Shown here one piece after another: positions 1,316 through 35,912 of a stretch of DNA of 36,756 nucleotides. The translations under genes were made by a program, and so were the position numbers. Under the pieces are notes generated by a model. That model was not told where the DNA came from. It saw nothing but the letters and a program-made list of their open reading frames with translations, and searched no databases. The DNA is from an uncultured virus (IMG/VR IMGVR_UViG_3300030376_004364) (lineage: Duplodnaviria > Heunggongvirae > Uroviricota > Caudoviricetes > Crassvirales): the IMG/VR virus record IMGVR_UViG_3300030376_004364; one strand, 5' to 3'. How positions within the stretch are numbered: the first letter of the stretch is position 1; every line of letters begins with the position of its first letter.

Positions 1316-1546
1316 ATGGAATATAGAAAAAGAATGGTTGACAACCCAACGGGAAAAGCAACTAACTCAAAAGAAATAGGTGAAAGCGCTTTATGGGATG
1401 GACCATTAAGTCAGGAGGGCAGACCTCACGCAAAGGGTAATTCTTCTGGAATAAACCCAATACAAGTTTTAAAATACCCTTGCAGGTATGAGTCAAAACC
1501 AATAACAGAATGTGCCAAAAAAGGAAGGTACAATGAAACTTACTAA
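1316..1546 (+). CDS. Hypothetical protein
   Basis: 76-aa ORF, two Cys near the C-terminus, overlapping the endolysin start. Confidence 0.7.
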   Translation: MEYRKRMVDNPTGKATNSKEIGESALWDGPLSQEGRPHAKGNSSGINPIQVLKYPCRYESKPITECAKKGRYNETY

Positions 1547-1919
1547 GAATTTTAATAAATCTGAATTTGAATGTAAGTGCGGTTGTGAAATGCCTCAGAA
1601 TGTTATGTTTGAAATACAAAAACTAGCAGCTCAGTTACAAACAATAAGAGATTTTATAAGAAAACCTATAAAGCTTACAAATGCATATAGGTGTCCTAAG
1701 CACAATAAAGCAGTTGGTGGAGTTTCAAACTCACAACATATTTTAGGAAAAGCTGCAGATATTCAAATTAGTAATATGGAACCTGCGGAAGTCTATAAAA
1801 CTATAGATAACTTAACTGAACACGGTCATATATTACAAGGAGGATTAGGTAAGTATAATACCTTTACTCATTACGATATAAGAAAGACTAAAGCTCGCTG
1901 GGATAAAACATCAGAATAA
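1533..1919 (+). CDS. Peptidase M15A-family (Zn peptidase) probable endolysin
   Basis: MKLTKNFNKSEFECKCG, AYRCPKHNKAVGGVSNSQHILGKAADI and FTHYDIR are typical M15_3 motifs with His/Asp/His Zn ligands. ATG at 1533 is preferred over GTG at 1512. Confidence 0.9.
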   Translation: MKLTKNFNKSEFECKCGCEMPQNVMFEIQKLAAQLQTIRDFIRKPIKLTNAYRCPKHNKAVGGVSNSQHILGKAADIQISNMEPAEVYKTIDNLTEHGHILQGGLGKYNTFTHYDIRKTKARWDKTSE

Positions 1920-2050
1920 TGGCAACAAAAAAATTTAAAGTACATAAAATGTACAAAGGTAAAGTTACAAAAATAGCTAAAACTATGGCTCAACATAATG
2001 CTTTAAAAAAGCAGGGCTATACTCATACTAAACCTAAAAATAAAAAGTAA
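1919..2050 (+). CDS. Small basic protein (43 aa), not in ORF track
   Basis: MATKKFKVHKMYKGKVTKIAKTMAQHNALKKQGYTHTKPKNKK; TAATG overlaps at both ends fill the gap exactly; 14 Lys, no Asp/Glu. Confidence 0.85.
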   Translation: MATKKFKVHKMYKGKVTKIAKTMAQHNALKKQGYTHTKPKNKK

Positions 2051-2364
2051 TGGCAGTTAAAAAAAAAGCAGCACCTAAAAAAAGAGGTAAGGCGCCCTCG
2101 CGTAAAAAATCAAAAGGAAATTACGCAGCAGTAAAAAAAGGTAAAGGTCGAGGTAAGAAAGCCGGAGGAGGAATGACTGCTAAAGGGGTTGCTAAATATC
2201 GCAAGGATAATCCGGGTAGTAAATTAAAAACTGCGGTGACTACACCTCCTTCAAAGCTTAAAAAAGGAAGCAAAGCTGCTAAAAGACGTAAATCATTTTG
2301 CGCAAGATCTAAAGGCTGGAAATCAGAAAGAGGATTAGCTGCGCGAAGAAAATGGAACTGTTAG
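2050..2364 (+). CDS. Highly basic protein with RRKSFCAR...RKWNC motif (DUF6321-like)
   Basis: 38 K+R in 104 aa. The C-terminal KRRKSFCARS...RRKWNC motif is recalled from phage proteins of unknown function. Confidence 0.8.
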   Translation: MAVKKKAAPKKRGKAPSRKKSKGNYAAVKKGKGRGKKAGGGMTAKGVAKYRKDNPGSKLKTAVTTPPSKLKKGSKAAKRRKSFCARSKGWKSERGLAARRKWNC

Positions 2365-2365
2365 T

Positions 2366-2500
2366 ATGAAAAATAAAAAAAATTGTGGGTGCTTTAGTAA
2401 ATATATGAAGCCCTCTGTAAAAGGAACTAAAGGATCAAAAGGTAGAAACGGCTGGGATGCAAAGCCGGTATTTAGGATAACTAATCCAGGTAGAAGATGA
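2366..2500 (+). CDS. Small basic protein (44 aa), not in ORF track
   Basis: MKNKKNCGCFSKYMKPSVKGTKGSKGRNGWDAKPVFRITNPGRR; starts after a 1-nt gap following the previous TAG and ends in an ATGA overlap. Confidence 0.8.
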   Translation: MKNKKNCGCFSKYMKPSVKGTKGSKGRNGWDAKPVFRITNPGRR

Positions 2501-2619
2501 AAAATAAAACAAACAAAGATGCTTGTTATTGGAAAATAAAAAAAAGCTATAAAGTATTTCCATCCGCCTATGCCAGCGGGGCAATTGCAAAGTGTCGTAA
2601 GAATAAAGGCAAAAAGTAA
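2497..2619 (+). CDS. Small basic protein (40 aa) with DACY...PSAYASGA..KCRK motif, not in ORF track
   Basis: MKNKTNKDACYWKIKKSYKVFPSAYASGAIAKCRKNKGKK; ATGA and TAATG overlaps; motif recalled from marine phage hypothetical proteins. Confidence 0.85.
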   Translation: MKNKTNKDACYWKIKKSYKVFPSAYASGAIAKCRKNKGKK

Positions 2620-2876
2620 TGGCTGTTCGTAAAACAAAAAAAGGAGCGGCATTAAAAAGGTGGTTTAAAGAAAAGTGGACAGACGAAAAAGGTAATGTCT
2701 GTGGTTCTACTAAAAACAAAAAAACCAAAAAGTGTAGACCTTCTAAAAGAGTGAGTTCAAAAACTCCAAAAACCTGGAAAGAAATGTCTCCAGCTGAAAA
2801 GAAAAAAGCTGTAGCGGAAAAGAAAAGAACAGGTATGGGTAAAAGAACTTCTTCTTTAAAAAGAAAAAAGAAATGA
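2619..2876 (+). CDS. Highly basic protein with LKRWFKEKW motif (DUF5872-like)
   Basis: LKRWFKEKWTD...CG...KCRPSKRVS..TPKT; coupled to both neighbours. Confidence 0.8.
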   Translation: MAVRKTKKGAALKRWFKEKWTDEKGNVCGSTKNKKTKKCRPSKRVSSKTPKTWKEMSPAEKKKAVAEKKRTGMGKRTSSLKRKKK

Positions 2877-3364
2877 GTAAAAATCCTAATTTAAAAAGAA
2901 ACGGCGGCGAAGGAACAGCTGTAGGAAAAGCTTTAAGATTTTTAGCTGCTCAAGGAAAAAAGTTTGCACCAGAACTGCTTGATATGGCGGGATCATTAAC
3001 TGGTGTTGAAGCATTAAGTAAATTAGGGGATGCAATTAAAGGCGATCCTGGTTTATCTGAAATAGATAAAAAAATATTACTGGCTGAGCTGGAAACAGAT
3101 GCAGTGAGAGAACAAGAGATAACTAAACGTTGGCAAGCAGATTTGCATTCAGATAGTTGGTTGTCAAAAAATGTACGACCATTAACGTTATCATTTTTAT
3201 TAATGTGTATGTTTTTGTTTGTTATATTAGATAGCACAGATTCAATACCATTTAACATAGATGCAGAATGGATTGATCTTCTTAAATCGCTTATGATAAC
3301 TGCCGTGGGCGGTTACTTTGTTGTTAGATCAGGAGAAAAAATAACAAATAAATTAAAAAAATAA
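2873..3364 (+). CDS. Probable holin (3TM / GTA-type holin family)
   Basis: RWQADLHSDSWLSKNVRPL motif followed by hydrophobic segments (LTLSFLLMCMFLFVIL; LLKSLMITAVGGYFVV) and a basic C-terminus. Confidence 0.75.
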   Translation: MSKNPNLKRNGGEGTAVGKALRFLAAQGKKFAPELLDMAGSLTGVEALSKLGDAIKGDPGLSEIDKKILLAELETDAVREQEITKRWQADLHSDSWLSKNVRPLTLSFLLMCMFLFVILDSTDSIPFNIDAEWIDLLKSLMITAVGGYFVVRSGEKITNKLKK

Positions 3365-3384: not shown

Positions 3385-3612
3385 ATGAACAAGTACGACA
3401 AAAAAATGATGCATGAAAGAGAATTAATCTATGATGCAAAAGGACAACTTCACCGAGCTGATAAAGAGTACAAAAAAGGTGACCACCACGCAAAACAAAC
3501 AATGATTCACGACCGTGAATTAATTTATGATGCTAAAACCGCTATTCACCGAGTAGACGATTACAAACATAGCGGACACCCTCTAAGTAAGCACTGGCAA
3601 AATAACAGATAA
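3385..3612 (+). CDS. His-rich small protein with internal tandem repeat
   Basis: MMHERELIYDAKGQLHRAD / MIHDRELIYDAKTAIHRVD with a 32-aa period; 9 His in 75 aa. Confidence 0.8.
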   Translation: MNKYDKKMMHERELIYDAKGQLHRADKEYKKGDHHAKQTMIHDRELIYDAKTAIHRVDDYKHSGHPLSKHWQNNR

Positions 3613-3954: not shown

Positions 3955-4376
<422 letters not shown>

Positions 4377-4390
4377 TAAATTAAATATAG

Positions 4391-4421
4391 TCTTGCGGGA
4401 GTAATATCTCGCAAGATTTTT
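4391..4421 (+). terminator. Rho-independent terminator
   Basis: TCTTGCGGGA-GTAATA-TCTCGCAAGA (10-bp stem with one G.U) followed by TTTTT. Confidence 0.8.
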
Positions 4422-5175: not shown

Positions 5176-5445
5176 ATGAGTAAAGTAAAAAAAATGAAAT
5201 CAGAAAACTTATCAATCAGTAAAGAACAATTAGAAAAAGTACAAGCACTGCAAGCAGACTTACAGAAGTTTTGCGCACACATTGGAGGATTAGAAGTTCA
5301 AAAAGCAAAAGCTATTTATCAAATAAATATGCTTGAGAAAGAAATGGACGACTTTAAAAAATCTATTGAAGATGAGTACGGACCTATTAACATTAATTTA
5401 ACTGATGGTACTTATGAAGTGATACCTACGGATAAAAAAGAGTAG
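5176..5445 (+). CDS. Hypothetical coiled-coil protein
   Basis: Heptad pattern followed by EYGPININLTDGTY; leader contains (TTAAA)x3. Confidence 0.75.
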   Translation: MSKVKKMKSENLSISKEQLEKVQALQADLQKFCAHIGGLEVQKAKAIYQINMLEKEMDDFKKSIEDEYGPININLTDGTYEVIPTDKKE

Positions 5446-5449
5446 GGTC

Positions 5450-5677
5450 ATGGGTAATATTATAAGAAAGATAAGTATAGGTGCTGACTATAAGAACGAA
5501 GCAATGCATTACTCTGTTAAGCAGACAGTTTACGGTGGGCACGAAATTTCTCATATAATATTTGAAGAATCTGATAATTCTTATAATATATTTATAAAAA
5601 AAGAAGATGAGGTAATGCCATGGAAGAAGTTTAATTCTAACATGGCAATATCCGTTGAGTATGACTTGGAGTACTAA
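5450..5677 (+). CDS. Hypothetical protein
   Basis: 75-aa ORF with a TAATG overlap with the next gene. Confidence 0.75.
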   Translation: MGNIIRKISIGADYKNEAMHYSVKQTVYGGHEISHIIFEESDNSYNIFIKKEDEVMPWKKFNSNMAISVEYDLEY

Positions 5678-6282
5678 TGAGAAGTATATACGATTTTATC
5701 ATAAAGCCGGTAGGCCAAAGATATGATAATACGGTAAAGGTTGGGGAAGTGGACCTAGTAACTAACACTTCTATAGAAAGTTTTAAGCACGTTAATAATA
5801 TAGCTGAAGTTGTAGCGACTCCAGCGGCATTTGCAACACCAATAAAAAAAGGTGATTTAATAGTTGTTCATCATAATGTGTTTAGAGTTTTTTATGATAT
5901 GAAAGGACTTAAAAAAAATAGTAGATCGTTTCTTAAAGACGGACTTTTTATGTGTGCAATAGATCAAATATATTTGTACAAAAATAAAAAAACCTGGAAA
6001 TCTTTTGGCGATAGATGCTTTGTTGCTCCGGTCAAAAATAAAGACCCTTTTAACAGCAATAAAACAGCTAGCCTTATTGGTATACTAAAAATAGGTAATA
6101 AGTCCTTAAAACGCGCTGGAATCAATCCAGGGGACATAATTGGTTTTACACCTAATAGCGAATGGGAATTTGTTATAGATAATCAGATTATGTATTGTAT
6201 GAAATCAAATGATATTGTTATAAAGTATGAACTCGATAGAAACGAAGAAGAATATAATAGCAGCTGGGCGAGAAGCAATTAA
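5677..6282 (+). CDS. Tandem GroES-like (two Cpn10-type domains) protein
   Basis: Domain 1: FIIKP...AEVVATP...IKKGDLIVV. Domain 2: GDRCFVAPV...IGILKIG...INPGDIIGF...EFVIDNQIMYCMKSNDIV, resembling GroES GDRV.v.p...G.V...G...GD.V.f...e..idg.eyl.m.e.DIl. Confidence 0.6.
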   Translation: MRSIYDFIIKPVGQRYDNTVKVGEVDLVTNTSIESFKHVNNIAEVVATPAAFATPIKKGDLIVVHHNVFRVFYDMKGLKKNSRSFLKDGLFMCAIDQIYLYKNKKTWKSFGDRCFVAPVKNKDPFNSNKTASLIGILKIGNKSLKRAGINPGDIIGFTPNSEWEFVIDNQIMYCMKSNDIVIKYELDRNEEEYNSSWARSN

Positions 6283-26353: not shown

Positions 26354-29300
26354 ATGTTTGAATATTTAATTGATAACAAAACAGTAATATTTAATAGCCC
26401 GGAAGAGCTTAATATAGGTATAGCTGAAGCAGAAGAAAAAGGCCTTGAAATAGTATTTGTTTCAGGAGATTTAATGAGCTTAGCAGATGATCCCATAGAA
26501 GGGCCTGTTGAACAACAAGACGATATAATAGGAAAACCGGGTTTTCTCCCAGATGCTGCAAAGAGTGCGGATGTAGTATCGGAAATACTACCAGCACAAG
26601 ATACGGAATTACTCTCGGAAGATGGTTCTTCGGATTCACAAACTGAAGATGATTATGTTAAGAAATTACTAAAGTCTCCTTTTTCAACTATTACAAATGA
26701 AGAAAAAGATTTTGTAGATTCGCATATTAAAAATGTTTTATTTCCCGAAAGAACAGCTCAAACAGGAACTGCTAAAATGATTGGTAAAACATTTGTGGAA
26801 AGAGATGTTTTCCAATTAGAAGATAAATTACCTGGTCAAACTGTAAGCGAGATGGATAAAGAGGGCAAGCTAACTATGCTGACAGCCGAGGCTATTGATG
26901 ATTATTTCGGAAGACAACCTCTCGGGTTTGAAAGACATTTAGATAGCGAACAAATAGAGACAATAGCTTTTAATATTGTAAACGATCTAAAGCAAGCTGA
27001 AATAACTGAACAAAATAATCGCCGAATAAAAGCTGCTAAAAGACTAAAAGATCCAGACGCTTTTGTAGCTACTTCTATTAATAATAGGTTTGACAAAATG
27101 ACTAAGCCTCAGCAAGAGCTTATAGTTGCTAGACAAAATCTTGCTAATACTAATAAAATATTTGAAGGTGAAAACTATAATCAAAAAATGGCTAATTCTC
27201 AAAATATAATAGATCTTGAAGAAAAAGTAGAAATTGCTAGAGACAATTATAAAAAGGGAGCCACAGGTCTTTCGGATATTAACACTGGAAAACAATTAAC
27301 GCCGCCAGAGCTTGCACAATATGAATTAGAGGGTAAAGAAACCGCAGATTATTCCGATCAGGTAAAAGATTTAATGAAATCTTTGCCTACTACTAGCGAA
27401 AAGTTAAAGGCTTCATGGATAGGAAATACTATTGAAATTCAAGAACTCAATGAGGAGTTACAGAATAAAGTAACATTAGTTTCAAAACCTGGCAGAGGGT
27501 TGGGTATACCACGAGAGTATACTTTTGAAGAGTTAATGAATCTTAGAAATGCAGGTACAGACTTAGAAATATTTGATGTAGTTACTGATGCTGATACTAC
27601 TAAAGGTGCAACTATTTCTCAAAGTATTAGCAACAATATGTTTGACAATTACAACAATCGCCGTAGAGCTCTTAATATAAGACAACAAGCTTTAGATGAA
27701 TTGTATTTATATGACATTGACCCTGGATCTGTTGAAAAAAAGGGTACCGGCATACTTTCTCAGTTTGAAAAAACAGCTTTAAAAGCTACTTTTGGCGATG
27801 TTATTGAAGATATTTACCCTCAAACACAAAGAGACTTATTAGATGCTACAGAAAATGTATTTTCAGATTTAGGCATAGAAGCAACTGAAGCTCAAAAAAA
27901 GAATTTCGAAAGAACTTTTGGAATGCAAGTTGGGGAAGGTGTTGGTTATTTTTTCCCTGAATTAGGTAAATTTGCCATAGCTAACGCAATAACCGGAGGC
28001 GTTTTAGGAACTGTTAAAACTATGGTACAAACCGCTAATGGTTGGAAAGCTATTACTTGGGCTAATAGAATAAACCAATTAAAAAGAAGTGGAAGTACTT
28101 TAAATAAAGCAAAAGGCCTAGTGTTCGATGCTATAGTTGAAGAAATTAAATTTAAAGGAGTAACCGGCGGTGAATCTGCAACGGGAGCTGGAGCGGGATT
28201 TGCATTAGGCGGGGCTGGGTTTAGAGCGTTGCCTTTTAAATTAAGCCCTAAAGTATTAAGTTACAGAAACCAAGCTGTAATAAACCCTATATTTAATAAA
28301 ATTGTAGGGGGTGGAATTGGAGGTGCTACATCTTCAGAGGTTGCTTTAGTTGTTGAGGATATGTACAAAGCAGCTACTACCGACAAAGATTTACTTGACC
28401 TACTTAAGAAAAGTTTTGTAGAAGATGCTGATGGCAACGATGTAGACGTTTTAGAAAGATATTTTGTTAATGCTGCTATATTTTCTGCTATAGGGGTTAC
28501 TCACATGAGACCTAAAGATCTTAGAGCAATATCTACTGTTAGAAATTTTAACAATCAATATAAAGGCGAATTAGAATTAGAAAATGCGTTAAGAGCTCAG
28601 AATAAAGGTAAAATGACTGAAGTTGAGTACAATAATACTTTAGATAAGTATTATCAAACTGAAAGCGTTTTAGCTATGGCTGACAAAGGATATAATGATT
28701 TGAACATGTCTCAGATTAGAACTCAACGAGATGCTGCTCAAGAATGGTTAAGCACAGATCCTAGTAAAAGAAATAATGATTTTACAGATGCAGCTCAGGC
28801 TAGAGCTGTTATAAATAAGTACGACCAGTCTATTACTAGAGTAAGATCAGTTGTCAATAAAACATTAGAAAATGTAGGTGAGTCTAATATATTAGGCAAT
28901 GACTTTAAATATAAAATTGTAGATCAAGGCCTTGAAGGAGATAAAGGATTATTTCTTCCAAAGTCAAATGAAATTATAATAAATTTAAGCGAATTTAAAG
29001 CGGGCGTTACCGAACATGAAATTAATCACGCTATTGTTAATAAGCTTATAACATCTAATCCTGAATTAGCTATAGGATTAAGAAAAATAATAGAAGCTGA
29101 TGTATCTACTAAATTAAAAAATATAAAGTTTAATTTAGAAGGCGAAGCTTTAGAATTAAGTGAATGGATAGATAAAAAACACGCCGACAAAGACGAAAGA
29201 GGTAAAGCTGATGAGTATATATCATATTTAACTGAAATGTTTAATAATCCTAAGTACCGAGAAAAACTTGTTGACGTTGGCGTTATAAGCGATTTAAAAA

Positions 29301-32300
29301 ATTCGGTTAGCACGGTAATGGAAAACCTCGGAATGAAAAAAGGTGATTTTGCAGATCGTATAAACTTAAATGAAAATAACTTAAATAGAGCTAGTGATGT
29401 TCTTGCATTTTTTGATCAACTAAGTAATGGAGGCAAAAGAGCTAATAACTGGAGAAGCAAGTTTGATACTTACAATTTATTAGCTACTGATATTAAAAAT
29501 TTAGAATTAGTAGATATTCCTACTGGTAAAAAAGTAGAGAGCATAGAAAAAGGCGTTGAAGAAGTTATGAAATCTAGTAGCATGAAAGAAGTTACAGAAG
29601 ATTTTAAAAACAAAAACTTAGCTAAAATAAATGCTGAGTTTGAAAAAATGAAAGCCGAGGGTCAAGACAATACTTCTATAGGATTTAATATTGGGCTTAA
29701 GTTCCAAGATATAGCTAATAAGACTATGGAATCTTATTTAAAAGCTAAAGATCTTAATATTAACGCTGATACCAAATATGATATTGTTGCGGATTTAATG
29801 TATGAAGCAATACCTAAAGCTGTTAATGCTTATGTAGAGGGCCAAAGATTTATAGATTACGTTAAAGAAAATAACCTTTCTAAAGAAGAAGCTGCTGTTG
29901 AATTTAAAAACAGAAATTTGCGAGAAACTTCTGGAACGGAAAGATTTGACCGTTTATATGGAATGGCTAAGGGCGAAGTTAAGCAAGCAACTATTACGTC
30001 GTATATTTTAGGTAATTTAACTAATCAATTAATAGGTGTTTTTAAAATGCCTAAATACGAAGGTATATTTAAAAATGTTTCTTTTGATTCTCAAAAAGTT
30101 GATAAACTACAAGCTGAAGGTGAATTAGATATTCCGGTATCAGAACAAGGGTTTGTAGATATTTCTTCTCCGGTTCAAAAAGTACAAAGAACTAGAAAGT
30201 CAGCGGAAAGCATGCTTGGCTTATCCGAAAAAACTAAGACTAAAGTTAGTGATGTAGTTAGTGAAATGCTTAAGCAACCCATAAAAGATTTAGATGCTAA
30301 ATTTATAGGAAACATTGATGCTGGCCCCGCCGGAAAATTTAATATAGTTATGTTAGAGGGCAACAAAGCTAGAGTAACATATCCTAACGGCAAACAAGAA
30401 ATAATGCTGGGAGCTAGATCCGCTAAACCTATTGTATTAAAAATTATAAAAAAGCTTAAATCAGACGCCTTTCAAAGACTGAGAGCTCCTAAAGCTACAG
30501 AAGCTGAAAAAGCTAAGGCTCAAGAAGAATTTAATGTGTATAGCAAATTGATGGATAATCCACCTAAATTTGTAAAAGATAAAATATTAAAAACTGATTT
30601 AGGACTTACTGTTGAAAAAGGAGTGTATGAAGAAATGTCTAAAGATGCAGGAGAATTAGGAACTCCAGAGTATCAAGGTTTTATTGATAGATCATTTCCG
30701 TTGTTTAAAACTTATTTAAGTCAAAGAGCTATAAACAAAAGATTTCCAGAGTTTAAAGAGCCTTTAGTGGGTCCTGACGGAAAACAAATAAGGGCTAAAA
30801 CAGCAGCCGGAGCACCATTATTTCTTAAAAAAGATATAACTTTAGCAGAATGGAGAAAGTATTTCACAGGAAAAGACAGTCCAGATTTACAGCTTAGAAG
30901 GACATCGTTATTAGAAGCACTTTCTAGAGAGTTAGGATTTGATAGAGTTATGGAAGTAACTGTTGATGCTGAGCTTAGAAAGCAATTAGAAAATGATCAA
31001 AGAGCTATTGGAAATGAATTAGAAGACGCTTATGTAGCTTTGTTTCAAAGAGCAGTTGATAGAGGAATTAAAGATGGGGGAATGGCTTCTTCCGCATTAG
31101 TAGAGTATTCGGAAACTTCAGGAAAAAAATTAAAAGATATTCAGGAAAGATGGGTAGGTTTATTTACTCCAGGTGAAGAATTAAATCTTGAAAAGCTTAA
31201 AAAAGATAGCCCTTCTGACTTTGAGTTTTTTACAGAAATAATTAATAGAACCCATGGTTTTGGTTATGATGATTTAGCTGTAAAAGAAAAAGCGCTTTTA
31301 GGAAAAAAACTAAGGAACCAAGGAGTTGGTGATCCTGTAGTACTTGAAGGAATTCTTACAGATCCTAATAAAGCAATGTCTGATAGAACCCAGCAGGAAA
31401 GAGAAGCATTAGGCGAAACAATGGCTGTGTTTGAAAAACTAGCTTCCGAAGTTGTGGTTGGCGCATCAACTAGTCAGAACAGTAATTTGAAAAGACTTTT
31501 GCCTAATATGCTTGGTTTTACTAGCCGTCCAGATATAAACATTAAAGACAAAAAAGTTAATGCCGAAGAATATGAAAGTATAATAGAAAAAGTAAAAGCA
31601 AATTCTAAAATACTTTCTGAAATAGAAGCTTCTACGGAATTAAAGGCGGCTTGGAAAAAAGTTGAAGATTTATTAATTGAAACATCTTTAGTTGGCCTAA
31701 ATGCTAAAGGAAAAAAAGATATAAGTGGAACTTTTTTAACTAATACTTTTAATCGTAATATTGACGCTTTTATTAATGAATTTAACAAAATACAAGAATT
31801 ACCTAGAAAGTACAAAGAAACAGAAATAGCGGCTATAAATAGAAGAATTGAACTTTTAGATAAATATGCTAAAACACCCGAAGGTAAAGCTGCGATTAAA
31901 GATATTAAATTCAAAGATGCTTTATTAAATGCTTCGCTTTTAACCTTTGGAGAAATGTTTGAGTTTAGTGGCAAATTACAGAAAGCAAAGGTTGCAGACT
32001 TACTTGCTTCAACACTTCTAAATAACGATGGAGTAGGCTTTAGAGCTTTTTCTTCCCAAAGATATTTTGCGTTTACGGGAGAATCTTCTCCTACTATAAC
32101 TACGCCTACAGCTTTTGATCCTGTTACTAACAAAAAATTAACAAAAAAAGAAATAAAAGAATATACTGAAGATAATAAAGAAATAAAATACAAAAACATA
32201 AAAAGTAGAGCTACTGCTAAAAATGAGCATTTAAATCCAAAACAAAAATTTGGAGTTAGGGTTTTAGAGGCACTTATGAATAACGACTTAACAAATCCTG

Positions 32301-35294
32301 AAGTTGTTAAAGCATTGACCTCTGGATATAATAGTTTGTACGGCTCTGAAAGATATCAAGTAATAGCGGACAGTAGAATTGGAGCTGTTACATATTTGCC
32401 TAGCTATAAAAAAATGATAGCAGCTACGGCTAAGCCTACTAAAAAAGATGCTAGAAGAGTACGGAAAATGGTAGAGGGAAAACTAACATCTAAGGACCTA
32501 GATGCGCTATCTAGAATATATGATATAATTACTAAAAAAAGTGCGTTAGAAGAGCTTATATCAGACACAACAGCTAATTTAGACGCTGCAATTATAAAAG
32601 CTAATGCTAAGGCTGTAAAAAATAATGCAGAGCTTTTTAAATCCAGTAAAATGGAAGAGTCTGATAATCTTTCGACCAAGCAACAACTAGATCAATTAGA
32701 AAGTAAAATAGACAGAAAAAGACTTCAGATAACTGATAAAAAAACAGGTGAAGTAAGATTTGAAGGTGACAAAGAATATAAAACTAGAATGGAAGAACTG
32801 GAAGCTACTTCCCCAGAATTATTTTTACCTAAAGAGCTTGCTGGAATGATAGAGCGAAAAGGTGGGGCAAAAGCAGAAGACGAGGTATCCGATTCTAAAG
32901 CTTTCATGGAAGGTAAAAAAAGACGAGATGATTTCTTTTTGCCATCTAATTCTGAAGATCTTCAAGGCTTATTATATAAAGTTTATGGTAAAGGCAAGCA
33001 AGGAGAAAAAGATATGGCCTTTATAAAAGAACATATACTTAGGCCATTGACTAGAGCTGAGAACGATTTAAGTGTTTATAGAATGAATCTAGTAGTAGAT
33101 TATAAAACACTTGAAGCTAAAATGAAGAAGCTTGGAGATAATAAAGCCGAAAGAGCAGCGGTTAAAAGAGTAGAAAAACTTGGATATAACATTGATCAAG
33201 CAGTAAGAGTTTATATATGGAATAGGTTAGGTGAAAAAATTCCTGGCATTTCAGAGGTTGAAGTTGCTCAATTAGCAGGGGCAGTTCATAACTCGCCAAG
33301 ACTTCAAGCTTATGCTAAAGGTATAATGAACATAACAAAAACAACACAGCAATATCCTAAACCTACAGCAAATTGGTTTAGAAGTAATGTTCAATATGAC
33401 CTGTTTACTTATGCTACTGATGGAGTACGTGCTGATTTTTTAGCTCCTTGGCAAGCTAATGTAGACGCTATGTTTAATAAACAAAATCTAAACAAGTTAG
33501 AAGCCAGGTTCGGAGGCGAGTATGTAAAAAATCTTAAGCAAATGCTTAAAAGAATTGAGCGTGGTAAATCAAGACCCGAAAGTACTAATGACTCTTTTAA
33601 CAGAGCTTTAAACTATGTTAATGGGTCCGTAGCTACTATTATGTTTTTAAACATGCGATCCGCTGCTTTACAAACTATATCCGCAGCTAACTATGTCAAC
33701 TGGACAGATAACAATCCTGTTGCTATAGGTAAAGTTATTGCGGAAAACCCTGCTGAATTTATAAGAGTTGCTAAAAAAATATGGAGCTCCGATGCACTTA
33801 AAGATAGAAGATCTGGCCTTAGAATAAATGTAGAAGAAGCTGAAATGGCTAGAGCTATAAACCAAGGTGGCAGAACAAATCTTCAGGGTTTGTGGGATAC
33901 TATGGTTAAAGTAGGGTTTAAACCTACTCAAATGGCAGATAGTTTTGCTATTGTAACAGGGGGTACTCCTTTTTACATGAACAGAATGAAAACTTATGAA
34001 AAGCAAGGACTAAGCAAAAGCGAGGCAGAAAACAAAGCTTTTGAAGACTTTTTAGATGTTACTCAAGAAGGACAGCAATCATCACAAATGGACCGCGTTT
34101 CTAATATACAAACAGGTTTAATGGGTAGGTTAGTGTTTGCGTTTAATAATACGCCATTTCAAATGTCTAGAATACAAAAGAAAGCTGCTCTTGATTTAAT
34201 TAACAGAAGGGGTAGTGACCGTGCTAACGCATCAAGGCTAGCATATTATGCTTTTATACAAAGTACTTTGTTTTACGGATTACAACAAGGATTTTATGCA
34301 ACCCTTATGTCTGACGATGACGACAAATTAACAGAAAAACAACAAGAAGAAAAATATAAAGACTTTGAAAAAAGAATAGATAAGTTAGGTAAAAGTGTGT
34401 TTCAGGGAATATTAACAGGTTCCGGAATGTACGGAAAAGGAATAGTAACTTTGTATAATACTGTAGACAAGGCAATTGAAGAATATGATAAAGGCTATCA
34501 AGGTAAAGACTTTTTTCCTATATTAAACGAGTTTCTATCATTTTCTCCAACTCTTGGAAGTAAAGCTAGTAGGCTAGGTAGAAACTGGGAAAGTTTAATA
34601 TACACTGACTTTACTAAAAAAGGTAGGGAGATTAGAAATACTTATAGTGATTTTGACCCTAGAAACCCTAATGCTAAGGCTTATTTATCCATGTTTGGAA
34701 CCTTGACTAATATACCTTTAGATAGAATTGTTACTAAAATGGAAAACATCCAGGGAGTTCTTGATGACCAGTCTTCCGGCTGGGAAAAAGTTGCAATGGC
34801 ACTTGGTACCCCAAAATATCAACTGCAAACTAAAGAGCAAAATAAAGCTGATAGACAAGCAAGAATAGATAAATTTTATAAAGAAAATACGCCTAAAGGT
34901 GATCGCGATAGAAATGCTATAGATGATTTAACAAAAGCTGAACAAGAGGNNNNNNNNNNAAGCGTTTATATTAGATTTAGGTATTACACGTAAAAAACTT
35001 AAGTCACTTACAAACGAAGAAGATAGAATTAATTATATTATATTAAAAGGCTTACAACAAGGTCTTGATTTAGAATTAGAAGCAGAAAATTATATTAAAC
35101 CTAAAAAAGAAAGAAGCCAAACTTATAAAGATTTAGCTGAGCTTAAAAAGTCAGAGCAAGTAGATTTATTAATAAGATTAGGTGTAACTCGTAGAGAATT
35201 GAAAGCTGCAAATAATGAAGAAAAAAGAATTGAGCTTATAATAAAAAAAGAACAACAAAAAACAAATAAAAATAAACAAAACTCTTTAAAATAA
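26354..35294 (+). CDS. Giant internal virion / ejection (polyvalent-type) protein, ~2975 aa, with zincin metallopeptidase motif
   Basis: Open from 26354 to the N gap. After the gap a frame from 34962 stays open to TAA 35292-35294, 7 nt before the next ATG. HEINH at 29015-29029; Gly-rich hydrophobic segments at ~27930-28500. Confidence 0.8.
34950..34959. other. Assembly gap (10 N)
   Basis: Run of N; the placeholder length shifts the frame of the giant ORF. Confidence 1.
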
Positions 35295-35582: not shown

Positions 35583-35912
35583 ATGAAAAAAATTATAATT
35601 TTAATAACTTTACTAGCATGTTTGAATTCTTATAGTCAAGATTTTACTTTACTTGAAATAAACGCAAAGTGGAATAAACATAATAATATACCTGTTAATA
35701 AAATAGCAAATATTAAAATACAGTTTGCATGGTTAGAAGATCAGCCTGCTTCTATCCAAAGAAGTGTAATTTCTGTACCAACTTTAATATTAATGAATGA
35801 TGGTAAAAGTGTTGCTCAATGGAGAGCTGGAATAAATCTTAAATTAAAAATTACAGAAGAAGAAGTTTTAAAAGCAATAGAAATATTTAACAAAAGAAAA
35901 AACAAATCATGA
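35583..35912 (+). CDS. Exported thioredoxin-like protein lacking CxxC
   Basis: Signal peptide MKKIIILITLLACLNSYS-Q; LLEINAKWN in place of F.A.WC; cis-Pro loop VISVPTLILMNDGK. Confidence 0.6.
   Translation: MKKIIILITLLACLNSYSQDFTLLEINAKWNKHNNIPVNKIANIKIQFAWLEDQPASIQRSVISVPTLILMNDGKSVAQWRAGINLKLKITEEEVLKAIEIFNKRKNKS

Follow-up and report, generated by a model that had tools for sequence, protein, structure and literature searches.

The DNA analysed here, called the window throughout, is a stretch of 36,756 nucleotides from an uncultured virus assigned to the Crassvirales (IMG/VR record IMGVR_UViG_3300030376_004364). Near its start, five very small Lys/Arg-rich open reading frames (ORFs), named ORF2 to ORF6, fill the space between an endolysin gene and a holin gene, all on the + strand. 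The endolysin, a VanY-type M15 peptidase (1533..1919, with an alternative GTG start at 1512), matches PF08291 (1.2e-20) and phrog_894, annotated as "endolysin" (1.6e-39). It is followed by ORF2 (1919..2050, 43 aa, net charge +14), a His-containing basic module; ORF3 (2050..2364, 104 aa, +36), which belongs to DUF6321 (PF19846, 7e-12); ORF4 (2366..2500, 44 aa, +12), which contains an N-C-G-C motif; ORF5 (2497..2619, 40 aa, +12), the probable N-terminal half of DUF5872 (phrog_727, 8.4e-11); and ORF6 (2619..2876, 85 aa, +27), which corresponds to positions 48-112 of DUF5872 (PF19197, 1.3e-15). The row closes with the holin (2873..3364, 163 aa), which matches phrog_3427, annotated as "holin" (1.1e-19), and has a hydrophobic segment at residues 101-119 with a Kyte-Doolittle mean of 2.25.

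The original prediction, made from the sequence alone, had described this array as five cationic, translationally coupled microproteins, and as an observation it is confirmed as a whole. The five ORFs occupy 1919-2876, and three of them are shorter than 60 aa. Lys and Arg together make up 0.33, 0.37, 0.30, 0.33 and 0.39 of the residues of ORF2 to ORF6, while Asp and Glu account for 0.00-0.07. The six junctions read TAATG at 1919, 2050 and 2619, TAG-T-ATG at 2362-2368, and ATGA at 2497 and 2873, with gaps of -4 to +1 in all six; among the other junctions of the + strand gene chain, 6 of 25 are spaced at -4 to +2. Genes are thus more densely coupled in the array, yet tight coupling is a general style of this genome and not unique to these genes.

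These small ORFs are real genes under purifying selection. We obtained ratios of nonsynonymous to synonymous change (pN/pS) from 16 pairwise comparisons of the array ORFs with relatives on five related IMG/VR contigs (L005-L009), in which pS ranged from 0.13 to 0.82. The ratios were 0.07-0.15 for ORF2, 0.04-0.06 for ORF3, 0.09-0.26 for ORF4, 0.09-0.18 for ORF5 and 0.00-0.06 for ORF6, so that all five are constrained, within an overall range of 0.00-0.26. The same script gave 0.15-0.17 for the endolysin and 0.10-0.12 for the holin, and by this measure the constraint on the array equals or exceeds that on its flanking genes. The five ORFs lie in different reading frames and are separate genes, each with its own conserved start.

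Two of the five proteins belong to recognized families, as the original prediction had guessed. ORF3 scores 46.2 bits against DUF6321 (E 7e-12), above the gathering cut-off of 28.5, and it also matches the C-terminal ends of phrog_10346, phrog_727 and phrog_3477. Its relatives are numerous, with 7940 of 8000 scored candidates at E<=0.001, and the core of the domain is 57-98% identical across the 55 phage-contig relatives that were aligned. The resulting alignment of 56 sequences has 20 invariant columns, including two Cys, one of which is the C-terminal residue, and the architecture is that of a disordered basic N-terminus joined to a DUF6321 core, with an invariant Cys84 and the terminal Cys104. 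A search of the ESM Atlas with ORF3 returned DUF6321 clusters only. Similarly, ORF6 matches DUF5872 with 58.4 bits (E 1.3e-15, cut-off 27.5) over profile positions 48-112 of 116; 2870 of 2906 candidate relatives score E<=0.001, most of them 84-85 aa long, and an alignment of 15 sequences holds 29 invariant columns with two invariant Cys.

A closer examination of ORF5 suggests that it is the partner of ORF6. It carries two invariant Cys on either side of a P-S-A-Y-A-S-G motif and aligns to positions 264-299 of phrog_727 (8.4e-11); ORF5 and ORF3 both align to the long PHROG profiles 727 and 3477, each to its own stretch. In tblastn searches ORF5 was found in 366 cultured-phage records at 65-76% identity, always inside cyanophage proteins of 395-591 aa. 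Of the 14 fetched loci with both genes, 12 have ORF5 immediately 5' of ORF6, and three of eight ORF5-type relatives match positions 7-45 of PF19197 at sub-threshold values (E 0.013-0.069), with no such match at E<=10 for the window copy. From these alignments, ORF5 and ORF6 are probably a two-gene form of DUF5872 in which ORF5 supplies the N-terminal part. A programmed -1 frameshift from ORF5 into ORF6 was considered and discarded: the ORF6 start, M/V-A-V-R-K with ATG or GTG, is at the same position in 15 of 15 sequences, and the two genes are 1.1-2.3 kb apart in L018 and L019.

The remaining two proteins are less widely distributed. ORF2 has no match in Pfam, PHROG or NCBIfam and none among cultured phages by tblastn, a search that is weak for low-complexity queries (0 records for ORF2, 6 for ORF3 and 2 for ORF6). 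It is represented by 23 metagenome clusters of 32-76 aa, one of them on 139 contigs, and its module recurs within a 426-aa ORF of locus L036 (E 8e-6); ORF2 is a rarer module than DUF6321 or DUF5872. ORF4 likewise has no Pfam, PHROG or NCBIfam match, and a profile search among 1.84 billion sequences found only two representatives; it is present in 4 of 80 loci and is lineage-restricted. NCBIfam gave no match for any of the eight proteins searched. Full-text literature searches, which did not extend to bioRxiv supplements, found DUF6321 and DUF5872 in table entries only and no functional study of either. Mimicin, a candidate parallel, was set aside: in the accessible part of its report (10.64898/2026.09.16.751764) it is a taxonomically restricted 74-aa mimivirus protein, unlinked to either family.

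The make-up of the array varies widely among relatives. We examined 80 loci, the best 80 of 571 confirmed ORF3 relatives and hence biased towards the window; 37 of the 80 belong to the window's own lineage. Seventeen of these 37 cover everything between p148, the 148-aa gene at 475-921, and p89/p75b, the 89- and 75-aa genes at 5176-5677. All five ORFs are present in only one of the 17, ORF3 to ORF6 in two, ORF3 with ORF4 in one, ORF2 with ORF3 in one, and ORF3 alone in twelve. The vacant slots are taken by other tiny basic ORFs, for example a 34-37-aa C-W-x-G-Y...N-C module and Lys-rich ORFs of 31-41 aa. The original prediction had supposed that coupling fixes the stoichiometry of a five-part unit; such variable membership argues against a stoichiometric five-subunit device, and the array is best read instead as a lineage-specific assortment of modules.

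The same modules occur fused in T4-like cyanophages. The proteins S-SSM4 CYXG_00074 (395 aa) and S-RIM8 gp114 (591 aa) combine DUF3008, an ORF5 module, a C-W-x-G-Y module and a C-terminal DUF6321; window ORF3 matches the C-terminus of CYXG_00074 directly (BLASTP 5e-9), and the DUF6321 of the fused cyanophage proteins is recognized by Pfam at 1e-20 to 1e-23. Sullivan et al. 2010 (PMC3037559) list their gene as T4-GC_119. It is located in the terS-terL hot spot, and its members include Syn9 gp114, S-SM1 SSM1_115, S-RIM8 gp114 and S-SCSM1 ORF29. The Table S8 row of that paper, "119 Structural protein Y 13 NP - - NP", records 13 peptide counts in purified S-SM1 virions, and the gene is missing from the S-PM2 genome (PMC3037559). 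The S-SCSM1 homologue ORF29, whose gene adjoins tail-fibre genes, is called a "virion protein" by its GenBank record name, and the available part of the S-SCSM1 paper reports 45 virion proteins by mass spectrometry.

Within five fused proteins, 15 of 17 module starts have an [LIVMF]-x-E site ending 0-15 residues ahead of them, where about a quarter would be expected by arithmetic from a density of 0.010-0.021 sites per residue, for a motif and window picked post hoc and in linkers that are Glu-rich. This pattern suggests head-protease cut marks before each module, and cut sites of this kind would explain why podoviruses carry separate genes for the same units. Module order differs between systems: ORF3, ORF5, ORF6 in the window; ORF5 module then DUF6321 in T4-GC119; and ORF5, ORF6, DUF6321 in the cyanophage P-SCSP2. 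A simple fission of a cyanophage-type gene is therefore out. Equating ORF6 with the cyanophage "L-x-x-W-F...C...K-C" module is also unsupported, as no profile match rose above 200 shuffles per target. The largest fusion seen was a 997-aa mosaic ORF at 3703-6693 of L075, which begins with DUF3008, two C-W-x-G-Y modules and a glycine-zipper-like hydrophobic stretch and continues with a Cys-pair module of the L-x-x-W-F type, a DUF6321 domain within the chain and a tail rich in Gly and Asn.

Outside the T4-like phages, solo forms are found beside head and packaging genes. For instance, in the T7-like cyanopodovirus P-SCSP2 the order is scaffold gp18, gp19, gp20, gp21, gp22, gp23 and major capsid gp24, in which gp19 is of the ORF5 type (1.5e-7), gp22 of the ORF6 type (1.8e-26) and gp23 a DUF6321 protein (1.4e-15). 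In roseophage CRP-7, a weakly DUF6321-like gp65, an ORF5-type gp64 and an ORF6-type gp63 lie directly 5' of TerL, and in pelagiphage HTVC023P a DUF6321 gene lies 3' of the capsid gene. The hosts of cultured phages with homologues are cyanobacteria, SAR11 and the Roseobacter group. DUF5872 is also annotated in CpV-BQ1, a giant virus of a haptophyte alga, a host that lacks any Gram-negative envelope; this implies a target that is not specific to the bacterial envelope.

A census of neighbourhoods covered the 43 DUF6321 loci outside the lineage, which are best matches to window ORF3 and not independent lineages; same-strand ORFs of at least 90 aa within 3 kb were grouped, and 150 of 153 family representatives were compared with PHROGs at E<=1e-5. 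Virion or packaging genes were found near DUF6321 in 26 of 43 loci, lysis genes in 15, both in 9 and neither in 11; one nine-member family counted under lysis is ambiguous between endolysin and tail lysozyme. By rough estimate, the count for virion genes is close to that expected from the high proportion of structural genes. Virion genes and lysis genes are both late genes.

Structural models add a limited view of these proteins. The AlphaFold2 model of ORF3, built from the 56 sequences, has a disordered basic N-terminus and a core at residues 40-104 of four short helices with a predicted local distance difference test (pLDDT) score of about 80-90, whereas the ORF6 model (pLDDT 60.6) is of too low quality for a fold search. 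A BFVD search with the DUF6321 model returned almost only DUF6321 proteins (27 so named) and no informative fold, and a PDB sequence search gave no match for ORF3, ORF6 or S-SSM4 CYXG_00074. The models neither support nor exclude a specific DNA-binding fold. ORF3, ORF4, ORF5 and ORF6 each have exactly two conserved Cys, and ORF2 has none; such pairs could form a disulfide in a particle that meets seawater, or make up a shared metal site. Many small proteins of the variable region share a leader, M-A-[YF]-x-Q-x-x-S-P-F or M-A-[YF]-K-[QM]-x-P, which is carried by ORF3 homologues and by unrelated neighbours (L010, L032, L034, L035, L040, L042, L053) and may be an N-terminal tag or a translation-start signature.

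Our favoured reading, which we hold at roughly even confidence, is that the array consists of stand-alone late basic mini-protein modules, probably genome-binding capsid cargo. The modules are drawn from a pool common to many marine viruses, comprising DUF6321, the two-gene DUF5872, the ORF2 module and the lineage-specific ORF4. Their extreme positive charge most likely serves nucleic-acid binding; the solo proteins would most likely be loaded into the capsid as internal or "cargo" proteins that travel with the genome, and most likely enter the host together with it. T4-like cyanophages have these modules strung into one virion protein, T4-GC119, with apparent head-protease cut marks before each module. 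The original prediction had offered two interpretations, a multi-peptide disruptin system or protamine-like core proteins. The second fits the indirect evidence better and is partly supported by the fused homologues in virions and the solo homologues between scaffold and capsid genes, although the predicted helical core of ORF3 is unlike protamines; the first, like the stoichiometry set by coupling, is not supported.

Several observations weigh against packaging. The solo proteins have no recognisable capsid-targeting leader, and no hydrophobic-x-Glu site occurs at the five N-termini. Among the fused forms, T4-GC119 is encoded by Syn9 but was undetected in Syn9 virions (PMC3037559), and the S-SM1 protein shows ORF5-type and other modules in the portion examined, which stops short of its C-terminus. 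For S-SCSM1 ORF29, the virion assignment is that of its record name. A profile of ORF6 relatives missed the cyanophage L-x-x-W-F module, a candidate for its equivalent, and the DUF6321 model found no known fold in Foldseek against the PDB at E<=0.001, with a best Z of 3.2 in a wide VIA-align search. The lysis count in the census is, by rough estimate, about twice the expectation of one cassette per 40-60-kb genome, ORF3 stays near lysis genes throughout the window lineage, and pelagiphage HTVC100P has a row of M15, a holin-like gene, several basic ORFs and DUF6321. Nearness to lysis genes is a real, recurrent feature, and it counts in favour of the lysis idea of the original prediction.

According to that idea, one or more cationic peptides released at holin triggering would permeabilise the outer membrane and replace missing spanins. 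Apart from the proximity just described and the HTVC100P order, it draws on the gene order endolysin, small cationic ORF(s), holin, which is that of gp27-gp28-gp29 in phage phiKT, where the available text of the report describes gp28 as a disruptin encoded between endolysin and holin, a 56-aa amphipathic helical peptide of charge +7 held at the membrane by hydrophobic interaction (10.1101/515445). The cassette also lacks a spanin pair, as had been noted from the sequence: ORF2 to ORF6 have neither a lipobox nor a hydrophobic segment, their best 19-residue Kyte-Doolittle mean being at most 0.03. The sole lipobox ORF of the window (35583-35912, +) is some 32 kb away from the lysis cassette. Its 109-aa product begins with a signal-like stretch that ends in L-L-A-C; possible identities are an outer-membrane lipoprotein, a unimolecular spanin and an exclusion protein.

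The five proteins are small and cationic and sit in a lysis cassette, as disruptins do, but the amphipathic, hydrophobic helices of that type were not found in them. Large hydrophobic residues (ILFVWM) make up 34% of gp28 and 12-19% of the five, the grand average of hydropathy (GRAVY) is -0.06 against -1.09 to -1.56, and the best 18-residue helical hydrophobic moment is 0.68 against 0.33-0.58, so that all five are far more hydrophilic than gp28, to which none shows sequence similarity. Their families also occur beside head genes (between scaffold and capsid genes in P-SCSP2), in virion proteins and in a giant algal virus; Rz-like spanins are present alongside in three non-lineage loci with lysis genes nearby (L055, L057, L063); and array membership differs among close relatives. 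The position between endolysin and holin is the synteny of an Elemovirus-like lineage of Flavobacteriia phages at the start of the late operon and is not evidence of lysis. We regard a lysis role for the array as improbable.

The main rival to the cargo reading is that the proteins bind nucleic acid inside the cell and are never packaged, either condensing or chaperoning replicated phage DNA before packaging, compacting the host nucleoid, or binding RNA or ribosomes. We consider this possible but rather unlikely. Extreme basicity agrees with it, as does the very strong purifying selection on ORF3 and ORF6 (pN/pS 0.00-0.06), and the high core identity among the 55 relatives, together with homologues in phages of cyanobacteria, SAR11 and the Roseobacter group, points to a universal target; the solo forms are also free of a capsid-targeting leader. 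On the other side, fused homologues were found in purified virions, the neighbours are scaffold, capsid and terminase genes and not replication genes, and conserved Cys pairs would be harder to explain in a purely cytoplasmic protein.

Alternatively, the proteins might be outer virion parts, such as cement, decoration or tail accessory proteins, instead of internal DNA-associated cargo. Detection of fused forms in virions is silent on their location in the particle, and the S-SCSM1 gene has tail-fibre genes as neighbours. However, proteins of 40-104 residues with net charges of +12 to +36 and a disordered N-terminus are better suited to touching DNA than to a place in a lattice, and the P-SCSP1u structure from cryo-electron microscopy, in the available part of its report, models only capsid, portal, adaptor, nozzle and fibre, the P-SCSP1u gene set itself not having been compared. 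We judge an outer location to have little probability. The available parts of the P-SCSP1u structure and MPP-C genome papers contain nothing on the small ORFs.

The cargo reading can be extended, tentatively and as a single joint proposal, to a conserved "mini-chromatin" set that would be composed of DUF6321, the two-gene DUF5872 and variable extras, for example ORF2 and ORF4. These basic proteins, stabilised by their Cys, would cover or compact the DNA in the head and enter the host along with it. Podo- and myoviruses infecting cyanobacteria, the Roseobacter group and probably Flavobacteriia would share the set; DUF6321 extends further to SAR11 phages, and DUF5872 to giant algal viruses. Delivery would be as a polyprotein cut by the head protease in T4-like phages and as separate coupled genes in other phages.

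From the window start, the + strand encodes the C-terminus of GroEL and GroES (1-478), small genes, the M15 endolysin, the five small ORFs and the holin, followed by further small genes, a second GroES-like gene, TerL (6499) and the portal (8713); 3' of the portal are virion structural genes, a tail fibre gene and, at the end of the structural block, an ORF of 2879 aa (26354-34993, +) that has no PHROG match at E<=0.001. TerL most resembles that of the Flavobacterium phage Elemovirus (43.6% identity; 68 of 87 matching records), with phages of Cellulophaga, Tenacibaculum and Maribacter next, and the layout of GroEL/GroES, endolysin, TerL and portal is common to the window and Elemovirus. On these grounds the host is probably a member of the Flavobacteriia, in agreement with the original prediction.

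The second GroES-like protein (5677-6282, 201 aa, phrog_13932 4.9e-24) is longer than the first and lies immediately 5' of TerL; both GroES-type loci are kept across the lineage and in Elemovirus. Elemovirus itself is without DUF6321; its GroEL gene is immediately followed by that of another small basic protein with Cys (gp42, L091 1918-2166), so that the slot for a tiny basic protein is kept while its occupant differs. In relatives without the M15 gene (L010 2934-3245, L034 6509-6820, L011 6817-7131 and others), a protein of about 103 aa with an H-E-x-x-H motif lies directly 5' of the holin or holin-like gene; it weakly matches DUF6782, a putative metallopeptidase (E 0.00095), and may be an alternative small endolysin.

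After the holin, a 75-aa protein (3385-3612, +) contains an internal duplication with two copies of H-[ED]-R-E-L-I-Y-D-A-K...H-R; it has no family match and was found in one of the 80 loci (L008). Further downstream, a strong terminator-like hairpin (4389-4418, +) with a 12-bp stem and a T-run lies directly 3' of a 127-aa gene (3993-4376) with a weak Hoc-like head-decoration match, and may mark where a transcript ends or is attenuated behind the gene of an abundant late protein. A sigma-70 promoter scan was uninformative, with 17 sites against 23.2 expected.

These findings concern some of the commonest small proteins of marine viromes, with at least 7940 clusters of ORF3-type and at least 2870 of ORF6-type proteins at 90% identity. 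If they are indeed capsid cargo accompanying DNA, they would represent an unstudied layer of how the ocean's dominant phages package their genomes or begin infection. Such Lys/Arg-rich mini-proteins would tend to escape virion proteomics that relies on trypsin, which may explain why only fused forms have been reported. Our results also call for caution in lysis biology, since a small cationic gene between endolysin and holin does not by itself make a disruptin.

Like phiKT gp28, as described in the available part of its report, the proteins are small and cationic, have no signal sequence and are encoded between endolysin and holin; its authors, who took <80 aa as an exploratory limit that both ORF3 (104 aa) and ORF6 (85 aa) exceed, report no homologues of gp28 beyond one near-identical phage (10.1101/515445). 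Protamines are likewise an incomplete parallel, as ORF3 has a conserved core that is predicted to be helical.

The internal proteins IPI-III of phage T4 are small and basic, are regarded as head contents that accompany the DNA, and come from a locus that varies between close relatives; T4-type internal proteins carry an N-terminal capsid-targeting leader that is removed at a hydrophobic-x-Glu site. The array resembles them in small size, basicity and a variable locus, but the leader with its hydrophobic-x-Glu end is missing in the solo proteins, and such sites occur only in the fused cyanophage forms. Those forms, the T4-GC119 proteins, differ from the array in being single mosaic proteins of 170-990 aa in the terS-terL hot spot, with extra modules (DUF3008, C-W-x-G-Y) and acidic linkers, whereas the window has five separate genes, with the modules in another order and within a lysis cassette; neither ORF2 nor ORF4 has a significant counterpart in the two cyanophage proteins compared. 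Placement of the module pool between endolysin and holin is particular to the window, while T4-GC119 shares with the array an ORF5 module and DUF6321, a late gene by the packaging genes, and a basic composition rich in Cys pairs.

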